64,000 nt of DNA from Limisphaerales bacterium (GTDB lineage: Bacteria > Verrucomicrobiota > Verrucomicrobiia > Limisphaerales > CAZKNW01). The stretch lies in NCBI GenBank assembly GCA_965658675.1, contig CBFHTT010000031.1:51320-115319 (forward strand), in the 5' to 3' direction. Made by a program: the position numbers and the translations under genes. Each line of letters starts with the position of its first letter. Position 1 is the first letter of the stretch. This document shows positions 6,865 to 63,230 of the stretch, one piece after another. The notes below the pieces were generated by a model. That model was not told where the DNA came from. It made no database searches and saw only the letters and a list, made by a program, of their open reading frames with translations.

Positions 6865-8085
6865 ATGGCACTCATTGTTCAAAAATACGGAGGTTCCTCC
6901 GTCGGAGACGTAGACCGAATCAAGAACGTCGCCAACCGAGTCAAGGAATACACTGACAACGGCGATCAGGTGGTCGTGGTTGTCTCCGCCATGCGTGGCG
7001 AAACAGATCGCTTGATCGGTCTGGCAAAGGACATCATGTCCCTGCCCACCGAGCGGGAGATGGATATGATCCTCGCCACCGGTGAGCAGACAACGATCGC
7101 TCTGACTGCCATGGCGCTGCATGCGCTTGATGTCCCAGCCGTCTCTCTCACCGGCGCACAGGCAGGTATCGTGACCGATGGAGTCCACACCAAAGCCAAG
7201 ATCAACAACATCACGCCAGAACGCATTCATCAATTCCTTGAAGAAAGCAAGGTGGTGATCGTTGCCGGATTTCAGGGACAGACCCAGGAAGGTCACATCA
7301 CAACACTCGGGCGTGGTGGATCTGATCTTACAGCCATTGCGCTTGCAGCAGCCCTCAAAGCAGATCTCTGCCAGATTTACACCGATGTGGACGGCGTCTA
7401 CACCTGCGATCCACGGATCGTGAAGAACGCCCAGAAGATTCAGGAAATCTCCTACGAAGAAATGCTCGAACTCGCCAGCCTTGGAGCCAAGGTCATGCAG
7501 TCGCGCTCTGTGGAATTCGCCAAGAAGTTCGGCGTTATTTTTGAAGTCCGCTCCAGTCTCAACACCAATCCAGGAACGATCGTGAAAGAAGAAACCCCAA
7601 GCATGGAAAGCGTCGTTGTGCGCGGCGTCTCACTCGACAAGAACCAAGCCAAGCTTACGTTGTTCTCTGTTCCTGACGAACCAGGTGTTGCCTCCCGGAT
7701 CTTCAAGCACCTTGCTGAATCCAGCGTCAACGTGGACATGATCGTGCAGAACGTCAGTCACGCTGCAGCTCACCCATCCACCGACATCAGTTTCACTGTT
7801 GAAAAGGCAGACCTGACAAAGGCCTGCAAGGTGATTGAGGATTTGAAGAACGAGATCGGCTATGGCGAACTCGTTGCGGACGAGGAAGTCTGCAAGGTAT
7901 CCATCGTCGGAGTCGGTATGCGCACACACTCAGGTGTGGCTGCCAAGATGTTTGAAACCCTTTCGGAAGGAAGCGTGAACATCGAAATGATCTCCACAAG
8001 TGAGATCAAGATCTCCGTGGTTATCAGGCTGTCCGAAGGAGAGAAGGCCACACAGGCTCTTCACGATGCCTTTATCGAGATCTAG
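6865..8085 (+). CDS. lysC: Aspartate kinase with tandem ACT domains.
   Basis: 406 aa. N-terminus MALIVQKYGGSSVGDVDRIKNVANRV is the typical aspartokinase start. Two C-terminal ACT-like repeats. Confidence 0.9.
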   Translation: MALIVQKYGGSSVGDVDRIKNVANRVKEYTDNGDQVVVVVSAMRGETDRLIGLAKDIMSLPTEREMDMILATGEQTTIALTAMALHALDVPAVSLTGAQAGIVTDGVHTKAKINNITPERIHQFLEESKVVIVAGFQGQTQEGHITTLGRGGSDLTAIALAAALKADLCQIYTDVDGVYTCDPRIVKNAQKIQEISYEEMLELASLGAKVMQSRSVEFAKKFGVIFEVRSSLNTNPGTIVKEETPSMESVVVRGVSLDKNQAKLTLFSVPDEPGVASRIFKHLAESSVNVDMIVQNVSHAAAHPSTDISFTVEKADLTKACKVIEDLKNEIGYGELVADEEVCKVSIVGVGMRTHSGVAAKMFETLSEGSVNIEMISTSEIKISVVIRLSEGEKATQALHDAFIEI

Positions 8086-8088
8086 GGT

Positions 8089-9153
8089 TCAACGCGACGA
8101 GACAGTAAAGGTGTGATACACGCCCTTGGGTGTTCCCCACGTGACAGTTCCTTTGATGTCTTCCGTCTTCCCTTTTACAAGAACCCGGATCGTAAACTCA
8201 GTGGGATCAATTCCACCGTTGTTGCGGTAGTGATTGACGAGCACACGGTAGGTTCCTATCGGAGCACCCTTCTTCGGCCAATAGACATTCTCCACTGGCC
8301 TGTCCGTAAGCGGACTGGATGCGTTTCGATCAATATCCAGAATCCCCCCAGACCTTGATCTCCTGTGCTGGTAATTGATTTCCTCTCCTCGCGGATCAAC
8401 CACATGTAAATCCAGATCATTGTTATTGTTCCACATCAGGGACACGCGGACATCACCTGATCGGGCACCTGCCGCAGCCAGGCGTTGCTCAAAACTATCA
8501 CTCAGCGCGAGTGCATTGGTCATTCCCGGGAGATTCTCCAAGGTCATGTTGGAATAGTCGCGATTGTCAGGACGCGAACTTCCACCAGCCCCGGCCATGT
8601 CTGGATTCATATTACCCGCCATGGCAGACGTCGGTCGTTGATTCAACGAGTTGGGAGTATTCCCTGATTCATCCTGCTGCATTTCAGGACCACCTGCTCC
8701 ACCTTGAACTGGTCTTCCATCAGGAGTGCCTCCGTCCATCTTCTGGAGAAACCCCAAAGGATTGTCCTCAATCTCTACACTTTCTGCATCCGCCAACTGT
8801 TGGTTCTCCTCGCCTTCAAGATCACTATCTCCCATCAATGCACCTCGCATATCCCCCCAGAAGCCGCCTTCTGCATCCTGCACTTTGATGAAAAATATCA
8901 GCAGAATGGTCATCACCACCGCACTGATCAAAACATCCTGCCAGACCTTCCGGGAATCATGAACGCTGTCATCTTTTTGGAATGGGTCATACTTCAGCGA
9001 TACATCCACGTCGGCCCCACATTCCGGACATTCGATAAAAGCCTCCTGATAGCGATCGCTCAAAGGAACCACTTCGCTACATTGCTGGCATTTGACTTTC
9101 ATGAATCTCTGTCGATTACAATGGCTTCGGAGGAGGAGTCCGTCCACCACCAA
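8089..9153 (-). CDS. Membrane protein with TonB-like architecture: N-terminal zinc ribbon, one TM helix, Gly/Pro/Met-rich low-complexity spacer, C-terminal globular domain. The true start is probably the MKVKC Met near 9102.
   Basis: 354 aa. CQQCSEVV...CPECGADV zinc ribbon. TM segment LISAVVMTILLIFFI. Spacer GGTPDGRPVQGGAGGPEMQQDES...NMNPDMAGAGG. C-terminal VRVSLMWNNNNDLDLHVVDPRGEE...LDIDRN domain. Last gene of the operon with two ExbD-like genes. Confidence 0.45.
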   Translation of the reverse strand: MVVDGLLLRSHCNRQRFMKVKCQQCSEVVPLSDRYQEAFIECPECGADVDVSLKYDPFQKDDSVHDSRKVWQDVLISAVVMTILLIFFIKVQDAEGGFWGDMRGALMGDSDLEGEENQQLADAESVEIEDNPLGFLQKMDGGTPDGRPVQGGAGGPEMQQDESGNTPNSLNQRPTSAMAGNMNPDMAGAGGSSRPDNRDYSNMTLENLPGMTNALALSDSFEQRLAAAGARSGDVRVSLMWNNNNDLDLHVVDPRGEEINYQHRRSRSGGILDIDRNASSPLTDRPVENVYWPKKGAPIGTYRVLVNHYRNNGGIDPTEFTIRVLVKGKTEDIKGTVTWGTPKGVYHTFTVSSR

Positions 9154-9970
9154 GGACGAGGTCTACACCTTTTTCTATCGGCAGCCACGACACTTCCAAT
9201 CCAGCATCACTTGCAACCTGTTTCGCCTGATTGAAGTCCTGAAAAGAATCTCCATAAACGCGAAACACAAGATACGCATTGGATGGGACCGATCGGTAGA
9301 ACTGCTGCAGTTGTGATTTATGAACCTTGGGGCTGATCCCTTTGCCCGGGATTGGCTCGAGAACAGTGATGCTTCCTCGATTGATCCGCTGAAAGCCTGC
9401 CGTGTTTGAAACCGGTGTTCCCCGTTGATAGAAATTCACCGGATAGACATAACCTCCCCTGACAATGATCTCCACCGGAGTCTTGGTGGTTTCATGTTCC
9501 CGAGGCAAACGCAGCCTCTGCGGGCGGTTCTCATCCTGTTCGACAGCAGATGCTGATACAGCCTGATTCCTCTTCATCTGTTCCAGTTCAGCAAGTGTCT
9601 CTGAAGTTTCCTCCATCTTTTGCATGATCGCATCGAGCTCAGCCTTCAGTTCCTTGTAATTCTGCTCAAGCGTCTCCTGTTGTTGTAGGAGCTTCAACTG
9701 CTCCTGAACCTCTGGATCTCCGGACTGCGCTGCAAGCTGTTCCTGAAAGCGTTGAGCAGCACGCAGTTCTTCCTGCAACTGAGCCAAACGCTTCTCCTGC
9801 ATCTCGCGGGTCTTGATCTCCGCTTCCGTCAGCTTGACGGACATCTCAGCGTCCTTGGCAATCAGTGTCACCATCAGTGCCAACAGAATGATTCCTCCAA
9901 AGAGGTTGCACATTGTATCGAGCAACATCTCCAGACTGTCATTCTCAGCATTGATTCTTCTGCTACCCAT
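9116..9970 (-). CDS. ExbD/TolR-family protein with a long coiled-coil insert between the TM helix and the periplasmic domain.
   Basis: 284 aa. N-terminus LLDTMCNLFGGIILLALMVTLIA resembles the ExbD TM segment. About 100 aa of coiled coil (EQLKLLQQQETLEQNYKELKAELDA). C-terminus AYLVFRVYGDSFQDFNQAKQVASDAGLEVSWLPIE resembles the ExbD periplasmic domain. Confidence 0.55.
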   Translation of the reverse strand: MGSRRINAENDSLEMLLDTMCNLFGGIILLALMVTLIAKDAEMSVKLTEAEIKTREMQEKRLAQLQEELRAAQRFQEQLAAQSGDPEVQEQLKLLQQQETLEQNYKELKAELDAIMQKMEETSETLAELEQMKRNQAVSASAVEQDENRPQRLRLPREHETTKTPVEIIVRGGYVYPVNFYQRGTPVSNTAGFQRINRGSITVLEPIPGKGISPKVHKSQLQQFYRSVPSNAYLVFRVYGDSFQDFNQAKQVASDAGLEVSWLPIEKGVDLVLGGGRTPPPKPL

Positions 9971-10738
9971 CTATCCTTGATCCATATCCAATGATTGATT
10001 CTCTCCAATGGCGTCATAACCGATCGTAAATCCAGCAGCCTTGGCTCGTTCCACACAGAAATTGAACAGTCGTATTCCAGAAGGACGAATGTAGAATACC
10101 AGATTGTTTTTTTCGGGGTCCCATGATTTAAGTGCCGAAAAGAACTGTCCGGGCGCACGCGATCCCGTGTAGACCTCTTCTCCCTCAGCTGTCCCGAATC
10201 GCCGGACGCGAATGGAATCACCATTCAACACCACCAACATGTTCTGACGATTATCTCTTGTGTAATCCGGCACCAGCCATAGACGGTTCTTCTTGATCAC
10301 CTCTTCGGCCTTGGTCGTCTCCTTTGACTTGCGGCCAAGGCCCAGTTCGCTTGCCAGAATATCAGCATCGATTTCCTGTTCCTGCATCTTCTTCTGAGCC
10401 ACTTCCAACTCCTTGCGAATGGCATTCACTTCGGAGCGAAGGCTGTCCATCTCCGCATCCAATCGTTCAGCCGTCGGCGCTGAAGTGGTGGCAGACATCA
10501 ACTTTTGTCGTGCGCGGTTCTCTGAATTGACCTGCTTGAGCAACGCCTCAGTCTCACGCATCTGGGTCATCATCGGATCTTCCTCAGCTCCTTCACCTTC
10601 CCACATCGATGCAGGACTGTTGACAAAGAGCGTCAAGATCAAGGTCACAAGGACGAGGATACCAGTCACCGCAGTGATGATATCCTGGAACGCGAAAAAA
10701 CTGATCCGCGTACTGTTGCCCTTTCTCAATCGAGACAT
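9971..10738 (-). CDS. ExbD/TolR-family paralog with a coiled-coil insert.
   Basis: 255 aa. ISFFAFQDIITAVTGILVLVTLILTLFV resembles the ExbD N-terminus/TM. Coiled-coil middle. C-terminus NLVFYIRPSGIRLFNFCVERAKAAGFTIGYDAIGE resembles the ExbD C-terminal domain. Directly abuts 9116-9970. Confidence 0.55.
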   Translation of the reverse strand: MSRLRKGNSTRISFFAFQDIITAVTGILVLVTLILTLFVNSPASMWEGEGAEEDPMMTQMRETEALLKQVNSENRARQKLMSATTSAPTAERLDAEMDSLRSEVNAIRKELEVAQKKMQEQEIDADILASELGLGRKSKETTKAEEVIKKNRLWLVPDYTRDNRQNMLVVLNGDSIRVRRFGTAEGEEVYTGSRAPGQFFSALKSWDPEKNNLVFYIRPSGIRLFNFCVERAKAAGFTIGYDAIGENQSLDMDQG

Positions 10739-12132: not shown

Positions 12133-13767
12133 CTAGTCCTTCTTCTTGCCAGCTTCGGCAATCTTTCCAAAGACGCCCACCGGGACATTCACTTTGATGG
12201 TCAATTCCTTATCCATATCTCCTGAAAAGGTCATCGTGGCATTTTCGTCAGACATGGTTTGAATCGCGTCCTTGAATTGCTGCGGAACCATCGGATTTGG
12301 ACCGGCAAACACACGGATCATTTGCACCAAATTCACGGCACCAGCCATCACCGTTGTATCTCCAACTGTAACTGGAGGCTTTGCTCCCTTGATCTTAAGG
12401 GTCTTATCCAACGAGCCTTTAGAGGCGATGTAGAACATGTCCGCCTTGCGCGCCATCTCCATACTCATCTTTCCACCCGGCATCATGGCTTCAATGCCTT
12501 CCTTCTGCCCTGGAGCCTGATACATCGGCAGATCCAGATTCAAAACCATCTCCATCTCACTGACATCCACACCCCCGATTTTGCGGACATTCTCAGTGTA
12601 TTTCATGCTCTTGTAGCTCTTCCCCTCACCTGACATCAGCGGCATCATGTCTGTGGTGATTTCTCTGATTTTCTCATGAAGCACTTCTGGTGATTTACCC
12701 GGCATTTGATAGACCGCACCAAAAGCGAGTCCCTTCCCTGCATCAAGAGATACACCGGTAACAATCGGAAGCATGGTGTCAATGAAGTCGTCCATTTTCT
12801 CCATCAACGCGGGATCTGCCTCCATTCCCTGCAATTTGTATCCGAGCACAGTGGCTTTGGTAAACACTTCCTTGATCTTCGGGATATCGTTCAGCGCGTA
12901 AGCAATGGCCATGGGACTGTCCCAATCCAGCTTGTCCACGACGCTGGAAACATTCATTCCGTTGTTCTTCAACCAACCGGCAAATTCACTGGAAGGTGTA
13001 GCTGAAATATTTTCGACGATTGCCAGTTCTCCATCCGAGAAATTTAGTCCTACTCCCAGTTCATCCAGTCCCTGCACAACGATCTCGGCCAGTGAGATAT
13101 AGAGAGCCAGCAATTGCCCCAGAGCAGCAGGGTCGTATCCGGGAGGCAGACCCTTTGCCGGATTTCCATCTGGTCCATCGACTTTACTCATCGAAGCAGT
13201 AAACATTTTTGCAAACGCCAAGCCCTGAGTGAACTGCATACGGATCTCATCGTTCATGTTCAGATCCATGCGAACCCAATCCTCTGACTTCCCTGTTACC
13301 TTGGGGGCATAAGCGAGGAGTTCATCCTTCCATGCATCAGTAAGAGGCTCCTGGTTGGCATCTTCCATGACGATGATTGCATGAGATTTTCCATCCAAGG
13401 CAGTGTGCCCATTCTTGGAAAATGCATCGGGATCACGATCGCGCACATAGGCGTCATAATCACGAACAGGTGCGTAAATCACAGACAGTGGTTTCTGCAT
13501 CATCCCTTTCTGCCAGACAGCCAACTGCCAAGGCTTATCTGAGTCCAGCCCGGCAAAGGTCGAACTACCCACACTCTGTCTCAAGCTCTTCTCAAGCTTG
13601 GCCTGATGATCCTTTCCCGGCTCAACGGTGCTCAGGAATTCCGCAGCGGTTTCCACCCACGCCGGATAGTTCTTTGCTGTGATCGTGACAAATGGCTCGG
13701 CTGCCATTCCTTGAAACGTTGATGCAATCAACGCAAGACCGACTAGTTTTGTGATCGTTTTTTTCAT
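12133..13767 (-). CDS. Secreted hypothetical protein.
   Basis: 544 aa. N-terminal signal peptide MKKTITKLVGLALIASTFQGMAAEP. No recognisable catalytic motif. Upstream of and co-directional with the ABC-2 exporter genes. Confidence 0.5.
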   Translation of the reverse strand: MKKTITKLVGLALIASTFQGMAAEPFVTITAKNYPAWVETAAEFLSTVEPGKDHQAKLEKSLRQSVGSSTFAGLDSDKPWQLAVWQKGMMQKPLSVIYAPVRDYDAYVRDRDPDAFSKNGHTALDGKSHAIIVMEDANQEPLTDAWKDELLAYAPKVTGKSEDWVRMDLNMNDEIRMQFTQGLAFAKMFTASMSKVDGPDGNPAKGLPPGYDPAALGQLLALYISLAEIVVQGLDELGVGLNFSDGELAIVENISATPSSEFAGWLKNNGMNVSSVVDKLDWDSPMAIAYALNDIPKIKEVFTKATVLGYKLQGMEADPALMEKMDDFIDTMLPIVTGVSLDAGKGLAFGAVYQMPGKSPEVLHEKIREITTDMMPLMSGEGKSYKSMKYTENVRKIGGVDVSEMEMVLNLDLPMYQAPGQKEGIEAMMPGGKMSMEMARKADMFYIASKGSLDKTLKIKGAKPPVTVGDTTVMAGAVNLVQMIRVFAGPNPMVPQQFKDAIQTMSDENATMTFSGDMDKELTIKVNVPVGVFGKIAEAGKKKD

Positions 13768-17594: not shown

Positions 17595-18297
17595 TCACTG
17601 AGCTGCGCTACCTTTGTATTTTTCCAGATCCAACCGCAAAATCTCCAGCTCGGTCTCCAAATGGGCGGCCCGACCATCGGCTGCTTCAGCTTCAAACCTG
17701 GCAGAACGCGCCTGTAACATAAAAAAGAGGGGGCTCAGCCCCAGCAAAACCACCAGCGCGGCAGCGACAACCATGATCTGGAACGATTTCTTTTGCTGCT
17801 GCTCAAAATCACGTTCCTTCAGCTCCTCATAATCGAGTCGAAGAACCCCAGCCAACACTTTGAGAAAGGAACTGCGTCGCCCATCACGATGTGCTCGTAA
17901 GTCGGCCGCTGACGGTGACGCCGGAGTCTCCGTCAGATCGCCATTCTTGTTCACCTCATACTTGATCGCCTTGGGGAGACATTCCTCACCGTCTGGTTCC
18001 ACCCGCGCCGAAGCAAAAGGCTCACCCGCCACAATCAGACACTGAACGCGATGCTCACGTTCCAGGCTCTTGAAATGCTTCACCCACTTGTCGATCTCCT
18101 CTGACCTTGCAGCATCTGGACTGCACAAGATGACGAGATACCGGGACAAGGCCATCAGCCGATGGTCTGCCTTCCAAATGGACAGGCACATTATAGCCTT
18201 CCAGCCGGCTCTTCAGCCATTCAGCCCAGCGCATGTCTGAGCGAACGCAGAGAATTGAAACCCAATGGGCAAACTCGCCTTTCTTATTAGCATCCAT
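17595..18297 (-). pseudogene. Membrane-anchored TIR-like (flavodoxin-fold) protein split by a frameshift near 18180 (ORFs 18055-18297 and 17595-18191).
   Basis: The upstream ORF encodes FAHWVSILCVRSD..WAEWLKSRLEGYNVPV (beta-A/alpha-A-like). The downstream ORF in the +1 frame continues ADHRLMALSRYLVILCSPDAARSEEIDKWVKHF...HRVQCLIVAGEP (TIR-like S-x-W/E region), then a C-terminal TM helix and coiled coil. The two frames overlap by about 135 nt. Confidence 0.35.
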
Positions 18298-22929: not shown

Positions 22930-25539
22930 TCAAACAAGCATCGGCTCCGGAGTCTCTGAATCGTAGACCTTGTCGAAAACCATTCTGAGTTTACGCGAGG
23001 AGATGGGTTTGCTGAGAAAGTCATTCATTCCAGCGTCCATACAGGCTTCCCTATCCTCCTCCTGCATACTTGCCGTCAGTGCAACGATCGTCAGGTCCGC
23101 ATTGGTGCCACTCATGGCCCTGATAGATCTGACAGCATCCATCCCGCTGATTCCCTCTATCTGACAATCCATCAGAACAAAATCAAACTCATCAGCAGCA
23201 AGCTTCTCCAAGGCTTCTTCTCCGCTTTCCGCGGTCTCGCACTTATGTCTCAGCTTCTGGACCAGTTTGGCAGAGAAGTTCCGATTGACTGGATCATCGT
23301 CCACAAGCAGAACGCGCATCCCCTTCTTTGACTTTCGCGCATCTCGGCCAAAGTTGGTTTCGCGTTTCTGTTCAGCCGGTCTCACGACAAAGTCTTCGTT
23401 TGAGAACTCCTGCAATCTGGAAAGCAAGAATCTGGATTGAATCGGACGGCCAAGGCACAGCCAACGGCTTCCATCGTGAAACCGTCCCAACGACGAACGT
23501 CGTTGAGGTGACGCGATCGGAACCACTCGCGCCCCAGCCGGGGCTCGATGCACAAATGCGGACTGAAAGGCGTTGATTCTAGTCTCATCAAACGAATCGA
23601 GATCAACCAGAACCGCCGGTTTGAGTGGTGCCCCTTCCGTCTTCGCCTTCTCCAATGCGTCCAGAACTTCAGACAAGGTCTCAAACTCCGTTACACTACA
23701 GGACCAATGACCCAACATTTCATTGAGTGCCTTTCTGACAAACGGATCTGGGAAACAGGTAAAGCAAGAAACCGCTGATAGCTCATCATCAAGTCGAACA
23801 TTCCCCGGGACAGGGGACGCCGCATTCTCAAAAGGAATCACAACGCCAAATACCGACCCCTTCCCTTCCACCGACCGGACAAAAGACCTGCCTCCCATCA
23901 TTTCAGACAATCGTTTGACAATGGACAGCCCCAGACCGGTTCCTCCGTATTCGCGTGTCATGGATGCATCCACCTGACTAAAACATTGGAAAAGGCGGTT
24001 CATTCGGTTGCGGGCGATACCAATGCCCGAATCTTTGACAATCATCTTCCACCTTCGGACACCGTCTGCGCCCATGGCAGATCCCACTCGAATTCTGACG
24101 ACTCCCTCATGAGTAAATTTGATGGAATTACCAACCAGATTCAGAAGTATCTGTCTGATCCTGTTTCCATCCCCACAAACCCAACTTGAATCTTTCATTG
24201 GCATGTAGAACTGCAGGTTCAGTCCGCGTTTCGATGCAAGATGACTGACGGTATCCACCACCTCTTCGATCGTCGTTCGAAGATCAAAGTCTGAATTCAC
24301 CAGTTCCAACTTTCCCGCTTCGATCTTCGAGAAATCAAGAATGTCATCGATGATCCCCAGTAGAGACTCCCCGCTGTTCCTGATCGTTTCAGCAAATTCC
24401 CGCTGCTCAGCATCAAGGTGCGTATCCAAGATAAGTTGGGACATCCCCAGAATTCCATTCATGGGTGTTCGAATCTCGTGACTCATAGTCGCGAGGAACT
24501 CGCTCTTAGCTTTATTGGCCACTTCAGATTTCTCGCGCTCCTCCTCCATGTCCTGCATCATGTTCAACATCGAGCTGCGCCCCTTTTCCAAAGAATCAGC
24601 ACGCTCTGAGAGTGTCTTATTGGCAAGCTCCAGATCCTCTCGGGCCTGTTTGAGACGATCGTTCTTTTCATCCACGGACCTGCGTGCCTCCTTCAACTGA
24701 TCATTGGATTTCTCCAATTCGAGTTTCTGCAATTGAAGAAGCCGGTTATTAAGAAGTGTTTCATTCTCATTTCGCCTTAAACGCCTAAACACAAACACCA
24801 TCATTCCCAACCCAACCAAGCCGAAGAAAGCAACCCTTACAAACACACCCTGAAAACCTCCGGCAGCCACAGTAGATGCATCCCTGATCGGAATCCTCAC
24901 TTCCAGTATTCCTCGCAAATCGCCTTCCACCCAATCCGTCTTAGGTGATTCTGGGTGAGAATTATGACAGTCCACGCACTCGGATCCCATCAAATCGGAG
25001 GTCGCATATCTCAGCACCCTTTCTCCTCCTTGGTTCACGATCTTTGAAAATGCTGTATGCGGATCGGTTGAAAGAGCCGCCCATGCTTCCTGCTGATACG
25101 CATCCATCTCCTTGTCCTCTTTCCATGGAAAAGGCCAAGGACTCACAAGTTCAGCATCAGCATCCCCTTCATGCAGGCCGATTCGCGCTCCTATTTCCTC
25201 AGTAAGAGATGCAGGAAGTGGCACAACTCCCTCCTTTCCATTGAACTCATGCGAAATCGTCACGCCTGAAACGTCTCCAAGTTTCCGAATTACTTGATCT
25301 GTATAAAGCTTCCGAAACTCGCCTAGAGAACGTGAGAGCATTCGGGCATTCTCGATAGCCGCCTCTTTAATCACCTGATCACGGGCATCGATCAATTTCC
25401 CGAAGACCACCCACCCAGACAAAGCGATCAGACAAGCCAACACGCTTCCCGGATGATGATGCAAAAGGTAGACAAGCCTGCCCAATCGGTGCTCACCAAC
25501 AACTTGCTTGGATTCAGAACTGTTATCGATGTGCTTCAT
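22930..25539 (-). CDS. Hybrid sensor histidine kinase/response regulator with N-terminal TM plus periplasmic CxxCH (heme-c type) sensor domain.
   Basis: 869 aa. TM. Periplasmic segment with [10 protein letters not shown]. Second TM. Coiled coil. HisKA H-box [15 protein letters not shown]. HATPase_c region with N, G1 and G2 boxes. C-terminal receiver [11 protein letters not shown]...[11 protein letters not shown]. Its start overlaps the stop of the Amt-PAS gene (ATGA). Confidence 0.85.
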
Positions 25540-27428
25540 ACCTTCTTCAGGTGATAGCGATCAGGATGACCCAACTGGCGTTCCAACATGTTGATCTCCA
25601 ACTTGAGATCCAGCATCTGCAGCTCCCTTCCCATGGCCAATTCATTAAACCTCTCCAATTCATTCATTCGAATCGTCAATTCCCTGCTCACCCGCTCTGC
25701 TTCTTCTCTCGACCTCATCAGCTCTAATTCATACTCCTTTCTGCGCGTAATATCTCTTACCAACAGAGTTCGTTCACCTTCTTCGCCTGAGCTTTTCGTC
25801 ACGGATACCTCGACTGGAAAACACCCCTTTCCCTTATTTTCCATCATGGCTTCAAACTGGTAACCACCTTTCTCCAACTCATAAAGCCACCGCGACTTCG
25901 CCCCCACGGAACCGTCTCCGCCGACAGGTTTGATACAATCCAGAATCGATCCATTCGCCCCATTCTCACCAAGCAATTCGCACGCCCCAGTATTTGCACT
26001 GGTGATCATTCCATCCTTGGTGACCGTCAGGATACCTTCTTTGAGATCTTCCAAAATCGCTTCACTACGGGTGATTTCCTTCTCCAAAGAATCAAGAAGT
26101 CGATTGAAAGCCATGGCCACCTGTCCAGATTCGGTAAATGGATTTCCAGGCAATCTGGAAGAAAGATCCAGGTGGTCCACTTTTTCCTCCATCGCCTTGA
26201 CCAGTTCACCCCGTTCATCGCTCGTAGCATGTTCAGAGTAGTTCAATCCATCAGCCTCGTCCTGAGCAGAAACCCTCAGCGGAACAATCCGATCCAGTGT
26301 TTTCCAAATCACATAACTGAAACACCCACCCCAAGCGAAACACATCAATGCCCCAAGAGACTGCACTAATAGGAGCTCCATCCTAGAAAGATCCGTTTCC
26401 ATCAACTCCAGATCGCCAAACAGTCCTACACACAGGATTCCCCATACACCACACACGCCATGGACCGCACCAGAGGAAACAACGTCATCCAAACGGAAAC
26501 TATGAAACAGCTTTTCAAACCATACCACCAACACGCCACCACACATGCCGATCATCAAGGACTGCTCTGCTGATACCCCGTGACAACATGCAGTGACTGA
26601 GACCAAGCCTCCAAGGGAACCATTCATCGGAAACCTGGCAGCAGCAAAACCGTAGATAAACCACCCCGCGACCAACGCAGCGATGGCTCCTCCAGCTCCG
26701 GCCAGAACGGTGTTCACAAGAACCCCGGGTACCTTGTCGTTCGCCACAAGCATGGCTCCACCGTTGAATCCCATCCAACCTACCCAAAGGATGACAACAC
26801 CCAACATTGAAAGAGGAAGATTCGAACCTTTGAAGTAACACGGAGTTCCATCTTCATTACAGAACCCCTGCCTGGCACCTATCACCATCACACAGGCCAA
26901 AGCACTGAATCCTCCGATGCCATGCACAACAGATGCCCCAGCAAAATCAATAAACCCCATACCTTTCAGCCAGCCTACCTCTCCCCCCATCATTCCTCCC
27001 CATACCCAATGTCCGAAAACCGGATAGATCAGGCATGAGATGACACAAGCCGCAATTAGATAAGATTTGAAAGAGACCCGTTCAGCAACCCCACCGGAAA
27101 GGATCGTGACAGCAGTCCCGCAGAACATGGTTTGAAACAAAAAGAAGACATTATCCTTCAATCCCGCATCCGACCCTACATCAAGCCGAAATCCACTCCC
27201 TCCAAAGATCCCTCCGATACTATCTCCAAACATCAGTCCATAACCCACCAGCCAGAACAAGAACACCGACAAACACAGATCGGTCAGGTTCTTGATCGCT
27301 ACATTGATGCTGTTCTTATTCCGTGTCTGACCGCTCTCGAGGCAAAGAAAGCCCGCTTGCATAAACAAGACAAGACCGGCACAGGCACAGATCCAGACCA
27401 CATCCAATTGGCTGACATTTTCAGGCAT
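25536..27428 (-). CDS. Ammonium transporter (Amt/MEP) fused to a cytoplasmic PAS domain and coiled-coil tail.
   Basis: 630 aa. About 420 aa of polytopic Amt core (11 TM helices, conserved Phe-gate and twin-His region). Then a PAS-like [24 protein letters not shown]. Then a C-terminal coiled coil. Translationally coupled to the hybrid kinase. Confidence 0.8.
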
Positions 27429-58486: not shown

Positions 58487-59935
58487 GTGCCCGACGCAGG
58501 CATGTCTTCATCTCCATCCATCAACGATCTGATTTCGCTCAGCCAACAGCTTGAGCGCGATCGTGATCTTCCTTTAAGGGAGCTGGAGGAGCGCGATCAC
58601 TCGCTCAGTCTGGACACGTCGAAAGAAGTCCGCGATCAAGAGCTCCTTCAAAATTGGTTACGGGCGCTTCCATCCCTTTCCTCTACAAATTTCGGCAAAG
58701 CCCGCTCGATTGGTCTCCTTTTGCTTGGCGGGTTGTCACTAATTGCTGGGCTGGGCTCAGGCATGGCGATGTTTCGCTATGACGGGACACACCCCATCAA
58801 CATTCTCCCACCTGTCGCAACCATCCTGATCTTTCAGGTAGTCAGCCTTGTTGTAGCATTCATTTTGATGAAGAGCTCAGCCGCTCCTGATAATGGTGGG
58901 ATTGGCCATACCTTGCGCGAACTAAGCCCGGGACGCTGGCTACCGGCCATCCTCAGACTCTGTAGCCAACCGACAAGAGAGGCGTTCGATACCCTTCACT
59001 CCTCCGTGTCCAGGCATCGAGCGCTCTTCACACCAGTTTATTCATGGAGTGCGTTTCACGCGTCACAATGGGCGTCTTCACTCTTCTTCGCCGGGCTGAC
59101 TCTCAGTTTTCTCAGACTGGTCCTTTTCACAGATCTGGCCTTTGCATGGAGCACGACCTTGGACCTTCAGCCATCAACACTCCATTCGTGGACAAGTCTC
59201 CTGACAGCCCCTGTCTCATTACTCATCCCATCAGTCAGCCCTTCATTGGATCTGGTGAGCGGCACGCGATATTTCCGATTGGAAGACGGCGGATTTTCTG
59301 CAGTCGCGAGTATGGACGTCCCCGGATCTTGGTGGCCGTTTGTTCTTGGTATTCTCTGTCTCTATGGAGTGCTTCCTCGGCTACTCTGTCTAGCTGTTGG
59401 CGCATGGAAGACGAACGCGCAGGTGAAAGCCTGTTTCACACAATTCCCCGGCGCATCCGATGTCATCAGGAGGCTCCGATCTCCAATCATTGAAACGATC
59501 ACCAAAGACGATCAGGAAGATGCCCCTGATTCCGTATCGCAAGATTCAGAAACAGATCATGGCATTACCAAGACTCCAACTCAGATCCTAATCTGGAACG
59601 AAGCGCAGAATCCTTTCATTGAAGCCAGGCAGACTCAGATTGGAGGACGACAATCATGGGAACAGGATATCCAGTCTTTGAAGACATTTTCAGCTGAGAT
59701 CGGAAACGCTGAAGCATGGATCTCTGTAAAGGCATGGGAGCCACCGACCGCAGACCTCGTGGATCTGCTGAAGGAATTACGCCCCCTACTCCAAGCCTCA
59801 CAAGCAATCAGGGTTGTCACTCAGTTTGAATCTGCGCCAAGCGAAGATCAGTTCTCAGTCTGGCAAAAGCGTCTCGCCAAACTCGGAGATCCTTACCTTC
59901 AGGTGGTGAAGCCGAACAGTGGAGGCGGCGAATGA
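58487..59935 (+). CDS. Polytopic membrane protein (DUF2868-like), translationally coupled to the downstream GTPase.
   Basis: 482 aa. At least 5 TM helices. No catalytic motifs. TGA/ATG overlap with the next gene at 59932-59935. Confidence 0.45.
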   Translation: MPDAGMSSSPSINDLISLSQQLERDRDLPLRELEERDHSLSLDTSKEVRDQELLQNWLRALPSLSSTNFGKARSIGLLLLGGLSLIAGLGSGMAMFRYDGTHPINILPPVATILIFQVVSLVVAFILMKSSAAPDNGGIGHTLRELSPGRWLPAILRLCSQPTREAFDTLHSSVSRHRALFTPVYSWSAFHASQWASSLFFAGLTLSFLRLVLFTDLAFAWSTTLDLQPSTLHSWTSLLTAPVSLLIPSVSPSLDLVSGTRYFRLEDGGFSAVASMDVPGSWWPFVLGILCLYGVLPRLLCLAVGAWKTNAQVKACFTQFPGASDVIRRLRSPIIETITKDDQEDAPDSVSQDSETDHGITKTPTQILIWNEAQNPFIEARQTQIGGRQSWEQDIQSLKTFSAEIGNAEAWISVKAWEPPTADLVDLLKELRPLLQASQAIRVVTQFESAPSEDQFSVWQKRLAKLGDPYLQVVKPNSGGGE

Positions 59936-61308
59936 GCCAACCTCGCTTTGCTGTAATCGGCCCTCCCAACAAAGGGAAGTCCAGCATCGTCGCAGCCTTG
60001 GCCCGCGATGATTCAGTCACTGTAAGCGCGACTCCGGGCACCACCACACTGCATCATGAGTATCCGATGCAGGTGGACGGGCAGATTCTCTACACCCTTT
60101 TCGATACACCCGGTTTTCAACGGGCACGAAGAGTTCTGAGCTGGCTCAAGGAAACCAATTCCGGGCCAGCGGATCGTCCGGCAACCATTCAACGGTTCAT
60201 TGATGAACATCAGGCTCAAGGGATGTTTCCAGATGAATGTGAGTTGCTGGCTCCTTTGACTGAGCCATGTGGGATTCTCTACGTCGTCGACGGCTCCGTG
60301 CCATACGGTCCTGAATACGAGGCTGAAATGGAGATTCTCCAATGGACCGGACGACCACGGATGGCATTGATCAATCAGATCAGCCCAGCAGATCATGTCG
60401 AGGAATGGAAGACGGCATTGGGACAATTCTTCAATCTCACCAGAGTCTTCAATGCACGAACCGCGGACTTTCAACGCCAGGTGGATCTGCTCGATGCATT
60501 GGGCGAACTGGATCCATCATGGAAACCCAGCCTTCAGTCAGCCACTGGCTTCCTCCAATCCGAACGACAGCAACGGCTGGACCGCGCATCAGATCATATC
60601 GCGGATATGCTCGAAATGATGCTCACGCACCGGGTCGAGAAGGAATTTGATCTGAAGAAGATACCAGAGTCTGAGATCGAGAAGGCACAGCAGGCATTCG
60701 AGAAGCGTCTGCAGGATGAGGAAGTTCGCTGTAGGCGAAGGGTTGAAGAACTCTACCATCACCTGCGCATTCAACGTATCGAAGATGCCCTTCCTGTTTT
60801 GAAAGGAGCATCACTATTCAGCGATGAGGCATGGAGAATCTTTGGCCTCAGTCGTCGTACCCTGGCTTCGTTGGGTGCCGCAAGCGGTGCTTTGGCTGGC
60901 GGTGTGATTGATCTTGCAGTTGGAGGGAGTTCCTTGCTGGCAGGCACCTTGATTGGAGCCAGCGCTGGTGCGGTGACTTCCTTCTTTGGTAGTCGCAAGC
61001 TCGCCAAAGCCAAGGTCCTCAGTCTCACCTTGGGGATGAAGCAGCTGGTTCTCGGCCCCGTGCAGAATCCTCAATTCGCTCATGTGGTCTTGGAACGCGC
61101 GCGTTTGCATCATCAACTGGTGGCCAATCGTTCACACGCCATGAGAGACCAACTCGACATGACCTCTCTCAAATCCGACCTCTGCCCTCCCCTCCAAGGC
61201 GAAACCCTGAAAGCACTCGACAAGGAGTTCCGCAATCTCGCCAAGGACTCTGAACTGAAATCACGCGAAGATTTCAGGCAGCTCGTAAGTGAAGCGCTCA
61301 CGCAGTAA
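59932..61308 (+). CDS. TRAFAC-class small GTPase domain fused to a C-terminal DUF3482-like region with glycine-zipper membrane segment.
   Basis: G1 GPPNKGKSS. G2 PGTT. G3 DTPG. C-terminal LASLGAASGALAGGVIDLAVGGSSLLAGTLIGASAGAV. Confidence 0.6.
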   Translation: MSQPRFAVIGPPNKGKSSIVAALARDDSVTVSATPGTTTLHHEYPMQVDGQILYTLFDTPGFQRARRVLSWLKETNSGPADRPATIQRFIDEHQAQGMFPDECELLAPLTEPCGILYVVDGSVPYGPEYEAEMEILQWTGRPRMALINQISPADHVEEWKTALGQFFNLTRVFNARTADFQRQVDLLDALGELDPSWKPSLQSATGFLQSERQQRLDRASDHIADMLEMMLTHRVEKEFDLKKIPESEIEKAQQAFEKRLQDEEVRCRRRVEELYHHLRIQRIEDALPVLKGASLFSDEAWRIFGLSRRTLASLGAASGALAGGVIDLAVGGSSLLAGTLIGASAGAVTSFFGSRKLAKAKVLSLTLGMKQLVLGPVQNPQFAHVVLERARLHHQLVANRSHAMRDQLDMTSLKSDLCPPLQGETLKALDKEFRNLAKDSELKSREDFRQLVSEALTQ

Positions 61309-61799: not shown

Positions 61800-63230
61800 C
61801 TATTTCTCTGCGACAGAAACGAAGTCAGGATAGGCATGCTGACCATGCTCAGAGATATCGAGTCCTTCCTCTTCCTCTTCAGCATCCACACGCCAGAGAC
61901 CTGCGCTCTTGAGCACGATGGCGAGAACCAATGAGAAGACGAAAGCGAAGATACCGAACGAGAGAGTTCCGATAAGCTGACTGACGAAAGAGAATCCTTC
62001 GCCGAAGATGGCTACAGCCAACGTTCCCCAGACACCGCAAACACCGTGCACAGAGATGGCTCCAACTGGATCGTCGATCTTGGCCTTGTCGAAGAAAAGG
62101 ATGGAAGGAACAACGATGATACCAGCGATGATACCGATGATCACGGATCCCCAAACGGACACAACATCAGCACCAGCAGTGATTCCGACGAGCCCAGCAA
62201 GGATACCATTGAGAGCCATGGTCAAATCAGGGTTTTTGATCATGACCATTGAAGTCACGATAGAAGCCAACGCACCGGCAGCAGCAGCCAAGCAGGTGGT
62301 AGTGATCACAAGACCAATGGCTTTCGGATCTGCTGAAAGAACAGAACCGCCATTGAATCCGAACCAACCCAACCAGAGGAGGAATACACCGATGGTGGCG
62401 AGGGGCATCGAGTGACCTAGAATCGGACGAATTTTTCCGTCAACATACTTGCCACGACGTGGGCCAAGGACAAGAGCGGCAGCCAGAGCAGCAAACCCAC
62501 CGAAGGCATGCACTGCAGAAGAACCAGCAAAGTCCTTGAAAGCTCCTCCGCTCAATCCACTTAGGAAACCTCCACCCCAGTGCCAAGAACCAGCAACTGG
62601 ATAACCGATTCCAACAAGGATAACGGCATAGATCATGAACCCCTTCAGGTTGATACGCTCAGCAACAGCACCAGAAACGATGGTTGCAGCGGTCGCTGCG
62701 AACATAGCCTGGAAAATGAAGTCACCAAATCCGGTCATGCACAGACCAACGCCACCATAAGCAAACGTGCCCGCGTCACCTTCATTCAAATCACCAATCA
62801 TTCCACCCAAGGAAAAGAACCCGTTGAAATCACCTGGATAATGAGTGTTGAAACCAAGGAGCGCGTAAGTGATCAGACCAATTGAAATAATAAACACATT
62901 CTTGAACAGAATATTGGTCGTGTTTTTCGCTCTGGTAAGACCTGCTTCGAGAGTTGCGAAGCCCAAATGCATCAGGAACACCAATGCGGCGCAGATGATC
63001 GTCCACACCATGGATAGGGAGAAGAAGTCAAAGGCGTAAGCAGTGGCCCCCTGCCCCTCGACCAGATCGAGGTAACCTTGTTTCGTCTCATCCACTTCGC
63101 CTTCGGCAGCTTCCGCCACCGCTTCAACTGCCGCGGCAACTGCCTCGCCAGCTCCGTCCTGAGCTAATCCCGTTGCTACTGGCGCTATGCACAGCAGCCC
63201 GAGAAGCATGTATTTCCAGAGTTTTTTCAT
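61800..63230 (-). CDS. amt: Ammonium transporter (Amt) with signal peptide.
   Basis: 476 aa. Signal peptide. 11 TM helices. Conserved Amt motifs (DFAGSSAVH, GFNGGS). Paired with glnK. Confidence 0.9.
   Translation of the reverse strand: MKKLWKYMLLGLLCIAPVATGLAQDGAGEAVAAAVEAVAEAAEGEVDETKQGYLDLVEGQGATAYAFDFFSLSMVWTIICAALVFLMHLGFATLEAGLTRAKNTTNILFKNVFIISIGLITYALLGFNTHYPGDFNGFFSLGGMIGDLNEGDAGTFAYGGVGLCMTGFGDFIFQAMFAATAATIVSGAVAERINLKGFMIYAVILVGIGYPVAGSWHWGGGFLSGLSGGAFKDFAGSSAVHAFGGFAALAAALVLGPRRGKYVDGKIRPILGHSMPLATIGVFLLWLGWFGFNGGSVLSADPKAIGLVITTTCLAAAAGALASIVTSMVMIKNPDLTMALNGILAGLVGITAGADVVSVWGSVIIGIIAGIIVVPSILFFDKAKIDDPVGAISVHGVCGVWGTLAVAIFGEGFSFVSQLIGTLSFGIFAFVFSLVLAIVLKSAGLWRVDAEEEEEGLDISEHGQHAYPDFVSVAEK

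Follow-up and report, generated by a model that had tools for sequence, protein, structure and literature searches.

According to the literature, the inner subunit of every characterised MotA/ExbB-family complex is a protein with a single transmembrane (TM) segment and a conserved Asp residue, and its gene lies just downstream of the channel gene (PMC9389320). In GldM, a dimer of the inner subunit bears a periplasm-spanning shaft of about 18 nm, and in the case of AglRQS the choice between a hetero- and a homodimer has been left unresolved (PMC9389320). Zorya includes ZorAB, a 5:2 proton-driven anti-phage motor, which is coupled to cytoplasmic effectors (PMC11946911). Membrane-proximal conflict systems built on DO-GTPase and GAP1-N2 proteins were predicted by Kaur, Burroughs, Iyer, and Aravind in 2020, and have been reported from planctomycetes and verrucomicrobia, where they are accompanied by GYF+TM proteins and vWA components (PMC7159879). 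The present study concerns three genes, termed A, B, and C, which lie on the minus strand of a 64-kb stretch of DNA (contig CBFHTT010000031.1) from a Limisphaerales bacterium; the whole of this stretch is hereafter called the window. The trio was compared with the systems listed above and with its relatives in other genomes.

Gene A (9971–10738, minus strand, 255 aa) and gene B (9116–9970, minus strand, 284 aa) are open reading frames (ORFs) that encode the first and the second of two paralogous long-stalk subunits, which are of the ExbD/TolR class by role and architecture. Gene C (8089–9102, minus strand, 337 aa) encodes a membrane-anchored adaptor and occupies a variable third slot. In the preliminary description of this DNA, the trio was presented as an ExbD-like operon with no channel partner in the vicinity, being either an unusual stator-less assembly or one whose partner is encoded elsewhere. 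As the best explanation of the data as a whole, the trio is probably the periplasm-facing half of a split module of Verrucomicrobiota and Planctomycetota; the anatomy of the proteins together with the split of the cassette is the part of this account to which a high likelihood can be given.

Gene order in related genomes

One genome per GTDB species (185,579 representatives) was scanned, which yielded 185 loci with relatives of A, and the best 80 of these 185 loci were analysed. The 80 loci belong almost wholly to Verrucomicrobiota and Planctomycetota, and include those of the cultured strains Stieleria mannarensis JC639 and Allorhodopirellula solitaria CA85. Cassette components were detected on six-frame ORFs with iterated hidden Markov models (HMMs) of our own, one for each component, and all of the counts given here extend only over loci with enough flanking sequence. 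The analysis revealed a cassette encoded on one strand, in which the genes for a DO-GTPase2-type GTPase, a GAP1-N2 protein, a protein of ~990 aa, a GYF/TM2 protein, and a MotA/ExbB protein are followed by A, B, and a variable third gene. The MotA gene is located directly upstream of A in 74 out of 75 testable loci (the neighbourhoods of three A homologs likewise had a MotA_ExbB gene directly upstream in each case), and B is always the next gene after A. The GTPase was detected in all of the 44 testable loci, the ~990-aa protein in 55 out of 56, GAP1 in 47 out of 51, and the TM2 protein in 62 out of 71. No separate GAP1 gene is present in the window's own clade (L001, L005, L010–L014, and L089).

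The identity of the partners is based on Pfam matches of the proteins encoded at two of the loci, L003 and L005: MotA_ExbB (E-values, 4 × 10−8 to 5 × 10−11), DO-GTPase2 (E-value, 1 × 10−7), GAP1-N2 (E-value, 8 × 10−24), and TM2 (E-value, 5 × 10−9). The cassette GTPase contains CxxC pairs, a GDVASGKT P-loop, and an NKSD motif, the ~990-aa protein is bitopic with one central TM segment, and the MotA-like protein contains two pairs of hydrophobic segments (2+2). The latter protein is far better conserved than its partners, as seen from L005 (9128–9973) and L089 (10001–10936): it is 70–74% identical where A is ~46% identical, and 88% identical where A is 74% identical. When compared with PADLOC, the cassette MotA gave weak matches to ZorA (E-values, 6 × 10−6 to 2 × 10−5), and the other cassette proteins gave nothing.

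The trio belongs, as an ordinary member, to an uncharacterised family restricted to the Planctomycetota–Verrucomicrobiota–Chlamydiota (PVC) group, and its oddity lies in its detachment from the rest of the cassette. The neighbourhood comparison, which had been proposed in the preliminary description as a check, places a channel gene next to the A homologs as part of a conserved cassette. The alternative offered there for such an outcome, that of a simply rearranged TonB system, does not fit the partners of A and B, i.e., DO-GTPase2, GAP1-N2, the ~990-aa protein, and the GYF/TM2 protein, nor does it fit gene C, which is dispensable and encodes a head that is not of the TonB type.

No MotA/ExbB/TolQ gene was found in the 64-kb window by tblastn with the cassette MotA proteins, by an HMM of 84 cassette MotA sequences run with no filters (--max), or by a Pfam scan of the window's ten polytopic membrane proteins, which comprise two Amt transporters, a CLC channel, an MFS transporter, a spermine-synthase-TM protein, an M50-like protein, a DUF2868 protein, a YqiJ-like protein, a histidine kinase, and one unknown protein. 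The cassette GTPase and GAP1 genes are absent from the window as well. A MotA fragment between A and the upstream short-chain dehydrogenase (SDR) gene was considered and excluded, the gap being only 29 nt. Thus, the statement that no channel gene lies nearby holds across all of the 64 kb, and the arrangement of a B-type gene directly downstream of a channel gene, which is seen in 74 of the 75 testable relatives, is not found in the window.

Three independent metagenome contigs, which come from different samples, have this same trio-only arrangement with 0 mismatches along 2650 nt, so the arrangement is genuinely genomic and an assembly artefact is ruled out. None of the three ORFs is disrupted, and no invariant residue has been lost. 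Compared with L005, the closest relative of the window, A has a dN/dS of 0.07 and B one of 0.11; dS is saturated. As judged from the sequences, purifying selection acts on an intact trio.

The complementary half-cassette

The MotA protein of L005 was used as a query against a collection of 5.8 billion proteins, in which there are exactly three close lineages per gene. The search returned two other close lineages, P0112 and P0113, each of which is 88% identical to the query. The P0113 lineage has a complete cassette. The P0112 locus (L089) encodes a DO-GTPase2 protein (594 aa), a 990-aa protein, a 163-aa protein, and MotA (311 aa), with no GAP1; its MotA gene is followed by genes for cysteine desulfurase, rhodanese, and NifU, and no trace of A, B, or C was found at this locus by tblastn.

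The L089 locus was assembled from sample ERR14888797, which is also the source of one of the contigs carrying the window trio. The tetranucleotide correlation between L089 and the window is 0.978 (0.962 for the flanks only). As a reference, thirds of the window compared with the rest of it give values of 0.961–0.974, L005 gives 0.936, and all of the other loci fall below 0.8. The G–C content of the L089 locus and the window is 52.2% and 51.6%, respectively. Between L089 and L005, the GTPases share 70%, the ~990-aa proteins 69%, the TM2 proteins 57%, and the MotA proteins 88% identity, and the window's A, B, and C are 74%, 71%, and 71% identical to those of L005. L089 and the window's trio have diverged from L005 to compatible degrees, which supports the origin of both loci from the same organism. 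NCBI also contains the exact proteins of both loci; the contigs that encode them measure 260,476 and 462,887 bp.

Hence, the cassette is very probably split over two loci in the organism of the window, with the channel and the cytoplasmic half residing at an L089-type locus, and therefore the trio would still have its partner. A partner encoded elsewhere is the option favoured by these data, given the half-cassette from the same sample and its tetranucleotide correlation with the window, and the stator-less assembly has not stood up to the gene order of the relatives and to the matching MotA half-cassette. One point weighs against the split: the placement of L089 in the genome of the window follows from sample co-occurrence and composition, not from one assembly.

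A second trio with no MotA upstream was observed in an unrelated lineage, on a contig of only 4.3 kb from uncultured Verrucomicrobiota SRP287453_co1_246 (L033, 1–2817), where a glucan-phosphorylase-like gene is located divergently upstream of A-B-C. This contig may represent an independent split of the cassette, and such a trio suggests that A-B-C is a separable unit.

Subunits A and B

The TM helix of A (residues ~13–40; 10619–10702) contains the invariant Asp19, within SFFAFQDIIT, and that of B (residues ~13–38, hydrophobic from residue 13; 9857–9934) contains the invariant Asp18, within LLDTMCN. Both residues are invariant in ~85 orthologs each, and both proteins thus have a single N-terminal TM segment with an acidic residue. 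The invariant columns in the alignment of A are S13, F15, F17, Q18, D19, I20, and I21, and the N-terminal motif SFF[AS]FQDIIT..[TS]G is found in all of the ~85 orthologs; a second conserved block (LVFYVRPSGI..F....A...GF.VGYDA) is C-terminal. The invariant motif of B is DS[LF].[LM][LF]LDT[MIL]CN.FGGI.

In both proteins, the TM helix is followed by a helical stalk (residues 55–150 of A, predicted to be periplasmic, 10289–10576; residues ~42–150 of B, matched in length to the stalk of A, 9521–9847) and by a C-terminal alpha/beta domain. The domain of A (residues ~152–245; 10004–10285) may have a TolR/ExbD-like fold, and that of B (residues ~151–275; 9146–9520), which hhalign aligned with the A domain, is larger. 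The AlphaFold2 (AF2) model of A has a mean predicted local distance difference test (pLDDT) score of 74, rising to about 90 in the end domain; it consists of a TM helix (15–40), three further helices (55–85, 90–131, and 135–150), and a confidently predicted beta-beta-beta-alpha-beta-alpha-beta domain at 160–245. The alignments of 85 A orthologs and 85 B orthologs matched each other from the TM helix to the C-terminus in hhalign (probability, 99.5%; E-value, 2.7 × 10−23), and this end-to-end match identifies A and B as paralogs of one architecture.

The stalks are helical and rich in charged residues, and their helices break at conserved AP, GDP, and LGLG motifs. The heptad periodicity is weak, and searches of Pfam, NCBIfam, and the PDB with the stalk of A resulted only in coiled-coil noise. 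Owing to the weak heptads and the breaks at motifs, helical stalk is a safer term than coiled coil; the insert of ~100 residues reported in the preliminary description is thus present, and its assignment as a canonical coiled coil is weakly supported. In the window, the TM Asp and the end domain are 135 aa apart in A and 138 aa apart in B, and among 64 distinct loci this spacing ranges over 104–177 residues in A and 95–173 residues in B. Across these loci, the spacing in A covaries with that in B (r = 0.86; mean difference, 2.8 ± 6.2 aa; uncorrected for phylogeny).

Homologs of A form a compact family: 38 word-indexed homologs were found, all of them from Verrucomicrobia-type sources and with no Pfam annotation, and the profile of A retrieved 371 representative clusters at E ≤ 1 × 10−30 and 1513 at E ≤ 1 × 10−10.

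Relationship of A and B to ExbD and TolR

An ExbD-like TM segment and an ExbD-like end domain had been attributed to both proteins at the outset. The architecture and the paralogy have been confirmed, and an ExbD likeness at the level of the sequence family has not been established. Several results weigh against it. Neither A nor B matched PF02472 at E ≤ 1, and 22 stalk-deleted orthologs of A and B gave no match to this family at E ≤ 5; no significant match of A or B was obtained in Pfam, NCBIfam, PADLOC, or PDB sequence searches. A set of 15 annotated ExbD and TolR proteins from E. coli K-12 and diverse plasmids, which is small and limited to proteobacteria, served as the hhalign reference. 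The scores were weak: stalk-less A aligned with ExbD/TolR at a probability of 56% (P = 1.1 × 10−4; 72–84 collinear columns, ExbD residues 44–135), and B aligned in register at a probability of about 1.5% (P = 0.02–0.03; ExbD residues 81–132), with unrelated controls giving P = 0.04–0.28. The fold of the end domain is, moreover, a generic one, since uS11, YqgF, and ASKHA domains score equal to TolR in Foldseek. In addition, a profile search of the PDB with the stalk-deleted alignment matched only de novo designed alpha/beta proteins, and a phmmer search with E. coli ExbD and TolR as bait found nothing among all ORFs of the window and 92 loci.

In the alignment of A with ExbD, the V.V.LP motif of ExbD corresponds to LWLIPD in A and to LRLPRE in B, and among the Foldseek matches listed for the end domain of A, TolR has the top target-normalised TM-score (0.53). 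The strongest argument is the contextual fit, i.e., the gene order, the single TM segment, and the Asp residue, and it is for this reason that A and B are filed as ExbD/TolR-class inner subunits by role and architecture; their membership in the sequence family is unproven.

Gene C and the variable third slot

The listed ORF of C extends over 8089–9153 on the minus strand. On the independent metagenome contigs the protein starts at 9102 with MKVKCQQC (337 aa), and this is most likely the true start. The AF2 model of C comprises four parts: a putatively cytoplasmic C4 zinc ribbon (residues 1–35; 8998–9102), a TM helix in the hydrophobic segment (residues 53–75; 8878–8946), a disordered Gly/Pro/Met/Asn-rich linker, presumably periplasmic (residues ~76–194; 8521–8877), and a helix followed by a DUF2135-related beta-sandwich head of the Ca-binding type (residues ~195–337; 8092–8520). 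The zinc ribbon, with its two CxxC pairs (C5, C8, C25, and C28), is built of four short strands modelled at pLDDT >90, and its Pfam match to Zn_ribbon_LysW (E-value, 9 × 10−4) is below the cut-off. The linker has ~110 disordered residues (pLDDT <50 over 113–176), and varies in length and sequence among homologs. The beta-sandwich (218–334; pLDDT >95) contains SLMWNNNNDLDLHVVDPRGEE and is of the TerD/PPC-like Ca type. Pfam, NCBIfam, PADLOC, and PDB sequence searches with C gave only zinc-ribbon and coiled-coil noise.

An N-terminal TM anchor and an extended periplasmic spacer give C the layout of TonB and TolA, with the zinc ribbon as a non-TonB extra, and no TonB_C or TolA_C domain was found at its C-terminus. 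Heads of the same type occur in other architectures, in DUF2135, MopE, OmpA, FHA, HSP70, and YukD contexts and in some archaea; this head is a mobile module for ligand binding, and not a TonB/TolA domain. The domain layout of the model thus agrees with the earlier view of C as a protein of TonB-like topology with an unrelated head.

Among 74 loci with enough downstream flank, the gene after B belongs to the C family in 18. In ten Pirellulaceae loci (L058, L063, L064, L069, L075, L076, L079, L083, L085, and L086) it encodes a protein in which a Pro-rich part, a TM helix, a linker, and a vWA domain follow one another, in a few loci it encodes GYF/TM or zinc-ribbon/TM proteins, and in 16 loci no gene follows on the same strand within 400 nt. 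The Pirellulaceae proteins (e.g., L058, ~7860–8820) are 316–506 aa long; their N-terminus is Pro-rich, the linker after the single TM helix is of low complexity, and the vWA-like domain contains VVDVSPSM, a MIDAS-like motif. Since a vWA protein takes the place of C, the third gene encodes an exchangeable TM-linker-head adaptor, and C is a variable, dispensable slot of the cassette. Two cassettes are present in the metagenome-assembled genome Loclat_bin-20771, one with a C-family gene (L028) and the other without (L021).

Comparison with known systems

In contrast to the 5:2 complexes ExbB–ExbD and TolQ–TolR, the inner subunits described here have no Pfam ExbD match and carry a stalk of ~100 residues between the TM segment and the end domain. 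Two paralogs, A and B, are obligatory, the channel protein has four TM segments in a MotA-like layout, and the third protein is dispensable, with a head unrelated to TonB or TolA. The partners are a GTPase, GAP1-N2, and the ~990-aa protein, and not outer-membrane receptors, Pal, or TolB.

Similar to Zorya, the cassette combines a MotA-family motor, which has weak ZorA matches, with cytoplasmic partners in a patchy multi-gene system, and the coupling of envelope sensing to a cytoplasmic response is a plausible common principle. Unlike in Zorya, the extension is found on the periplasmic B-type subunits and is not a cytoplasmic tail as in ZorA, a ZorC/D/E-like nuclease is lacking, and the partners are DO-GTPase2 and GAP1-N2. 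Membership in Zorya was rejected, as no ZorB, ZorC, or ZorD was found and PADLOC gave nothing for A, B, and C; by analogy, Zorya may be regarded as the nearest functional counterpart.

A long periplasm-spanning shaft on a dimer of inner subunits would be a feature shared with GldL–GldM and PorL–PorM. No relation in sequence or fold was found to these proteins, the shaft of GldM is composed of globular domains in a homodimer, GldL lies outside Pfam MotA_ExbB, and both the phyla and the partners are different. In AglR–AglQ/AglS of Myxococcus gliding, a single MotA/TolQ-like channel protein is likewise accompanied by two Asp-bearing single-TM paralogs; in contrast, AglQ and AglS are short, TolR-like, and stalk-less, the GTPase/GAP1 cassette is lacking, and the taxon and role differ.

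In its upstream half, the cassette encodes proteins that match the Pfam families DO-GTPase2 and GAP1-N2, as in the GAP1-N2-type DO-GTPase systems. The window differs from those systems in lacking the defining GTPase and GAP1 genes, and L089 has the GTPase and no GAP1. MotA, ExbB, TolQ, ExbD, and TM2 are unmentioned in the main text and one supplementary file of PMC7159879, and the supplement also contains no mention of GYF.

Proposed mechanism and function

One A and one B subunit may pair as a heterodimer and serve as the inner axle of an ion-driven complex of the 5:2 type, in which a MotA/ExbB-like pentamer would surround them and the Asp residues of A and B would act as proton-binding sites; the matched lengths of the two stalks lend indirect support to such a dimer. 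By means of these stalks, the TolR-like end domains would extend deep into the periplasm and could there anchor to, or sense, a structure of the envelope. Protein C, which its TM helix would anchor in the inner membrane with the zinc ribbon on the cytoplasmic side, might serve as an exchangeable adaptor that reaches the envelope through its flexible linker and Ca-binding beta-sandwich head, and the vWA substitute might act likewise. The bitopic ~990-aa protein and the GYF/TM2 protein would couple the motor to the DO-GTPase switch, with or without GAP1-N2. As its most likely role, the system as a whole could perform an envelope surveillance that depends on the proton-motive force and feeds a GTPase-gated response, i.e., it may act in conflict or defence on the Zorya principle rather than in nutrient uptake.

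This functional role is put forward tentatively, as the less probable part of the account. The wider proposal is doubtful: it would make the cassette a previously unrecognised, PVC-restricted class of 5:2 motors with a heterodimeric long-stalk axle, wired to DO-GTPase/GAP1 and engaged in immune surveillance, analogous to Zorya and independent of it, with its halves functional at separate loci. Several points speak against these proposals: we infer both the 5:2 stoichiometry and the A:B heterodimer, the cassette contains no recognisable effector, PADLOC gave only the weak ZorA matches for MotA and nothing for A, B, and C, housekeeping genes flank several of the loci, and MotA is unusually conserved.

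Alternative explanations

The results described above also have to be weighed against three other explanations. The cassette could be a divergent energy-transduction system of the Ton/Tol type, in which MotA/ExbB, two ExbD paralogs, and a TonB- or TolA-like C would energise outer-membrane transport or maintain envelope integrity. The architectures run parallel (a channel gene, single-TM Asp proteins, and a TM-linker-head protein), the end domain of A resembles TolR in fold, the MotA homologs are named biopolymer transport protein ExbB/TolQ in their sources, and two B-type paralogs per channel protein are known from AglRQS (PMC9389320). Such an envelope function is a live rival, although its probability is rather low: DO-GTPase2 and the ~990-aa protein are invariable in the cassette and GAP1-N2 is usual, most loci have no C, with vWA or other proteins in its place, and no TonB-dependent receptor, Pal, or TolB is found in the listed neighbourhoods. 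Furthermore, only 185 loci were found among the 185,579 species representatives, and C ends in a Ca-type beta-sandwich instead of a TonB/TolA C-terminal domain, on which ground a TonB system proper was rejected. A further explanation, which is somewhat less probable still, holds that A and B are unrelated to ExbD, being lineage-specific coiled-coil membrane scaffolds that adjoin a MotA-family gene and whose Asp has another role. It would account for the lack of a Pfam ExbD match at E ≤ 5 in the 22 stalk-deleted orthologs, the lack of PDB sequence matches, hhalign probabilities of no more than 56%, and a fold class common to many unrelated proteins. On the other hand, every known MotA/ExbB-family complex is marked by a channel gene and, after it, the gene for a single-TM protein whose helix bears an Asp close to its cytoplasmic end (PMC9389320), this gene order recurs in 74 out of 75 loci, the hhalign match is collinear across the whole periplasmic domain of ExbD, including V.V.LP and its counterparts LWLIPD and LRLPRE, and TolR heads the Foldseek list by target-normalised TM-score.

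The third explanation accepts the cassette and denies its function in the organism of the window, the trio being a decaying, non-functional leftover of a broken cassette with no working partner. Only A-B-C is present in 64 kb, its flanks are unrelated housekeeping genes, and no promoter-like site was seen upstream, all of which speaks for a remnant. Against this stand three intact ORFs with all of their invariant residues, dN/dS values of 0.07–0.11 relative to L005, the identical sequence in three samples, the intact complementary half with the same genome signature in the same sample, and the second lineage, L033, which keeps A-B-C as a unit without MotA upstream. A pseudogenised remnant was therefore rejected, the genes being intact and under purifying selection, and decay of the trio is the least probable of the three explanations, having only a slight chance of being correct. 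The trio as the periplasm-facing half of a split module remains the preferred explanation.

Surroundings of the trio and other features of the window

The genes of the trio are tightly packed, with the start codon of B immediately following the stop codon of A. The SDR gene lies 29 nt upstream of A on the same strand, and genes for a signal peptidase, an unknown protein of 544 aa, a pair of ABC-2 transporter proteins, and a DUF6901 protein are located farther upstream. On the other side, an aspartate kinase gene (6865–8085, plus strand) converges on C, and the stop codons of the two genes are 3 nt apart (8083–8091). The flanks of the trio thus consist of unrelated housekeeping genes (SDR, signal peptidase, ABC transporter, and aspartate kinase). 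A promoter/terminator scan was uninformative, in that it detected neither a promoter-like site upstream of the trio nor a terminator-like hairpin between the aspartate kinase gene and C. The 544-aa protein (12133–13767, minus strand), the gene of which lies between those of the signal peptidase and the ABC-2 pair, has a signal-like sequence at its N-terminus and no match in Pfam or NCBIfam, and is conserved on contigs L006–L008.

A protein of 198 aa (17595–18191, minus strand) has its TM helix at the C-terminal end, with a short, charged helical tail behind it, and shows weak FliL-like NCBIfam matches (E-value, ~0.008) together with weak cross-matches to the cassette HMMs, the latter probably arising from composition alone. 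A hybrid histidine kinase with a Tll0287-like sensor (22930–27428, minus strand) is encoded beside an ammonium transporter–PAS fusion, and a second Amt transporter gene is found near the end of the window (61800–63230, minus strand). The region 58487–61308 (plus strand) encodes a DUF2868 membrane protein (Pfam E-value, 2 × 10−46) followed, with an overlap of 4 nt, by an ORF of 458 aa; this is possibly a DUF2868/GTPase gene pair, and it appears unrelated to the trio.

Significance

The roles known for the MotA/ExbB family are in flagella, TonB-dependent uptake, Tol-Pal, gliding, and Zorya defence, and a further branch would widen this range. The branch described here is distinguished by its paired long-stalk inner subunits and by an obligatory GTPase partner. 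If the account is true, the predicted DO-GTPase/GAP1-N2 conflict systems would gain an energy-coupled membrane module that can be tested, and experiments are feasible, as the cassette is present in the cultured planctomycetes S. mannarensis JC639 and A. solitaria CA85. For genome annotation, the case shows that an ExbD-like operon with the look of an "orphan" can be one half of a cassette that has been split, and is not necessarily stator-less.

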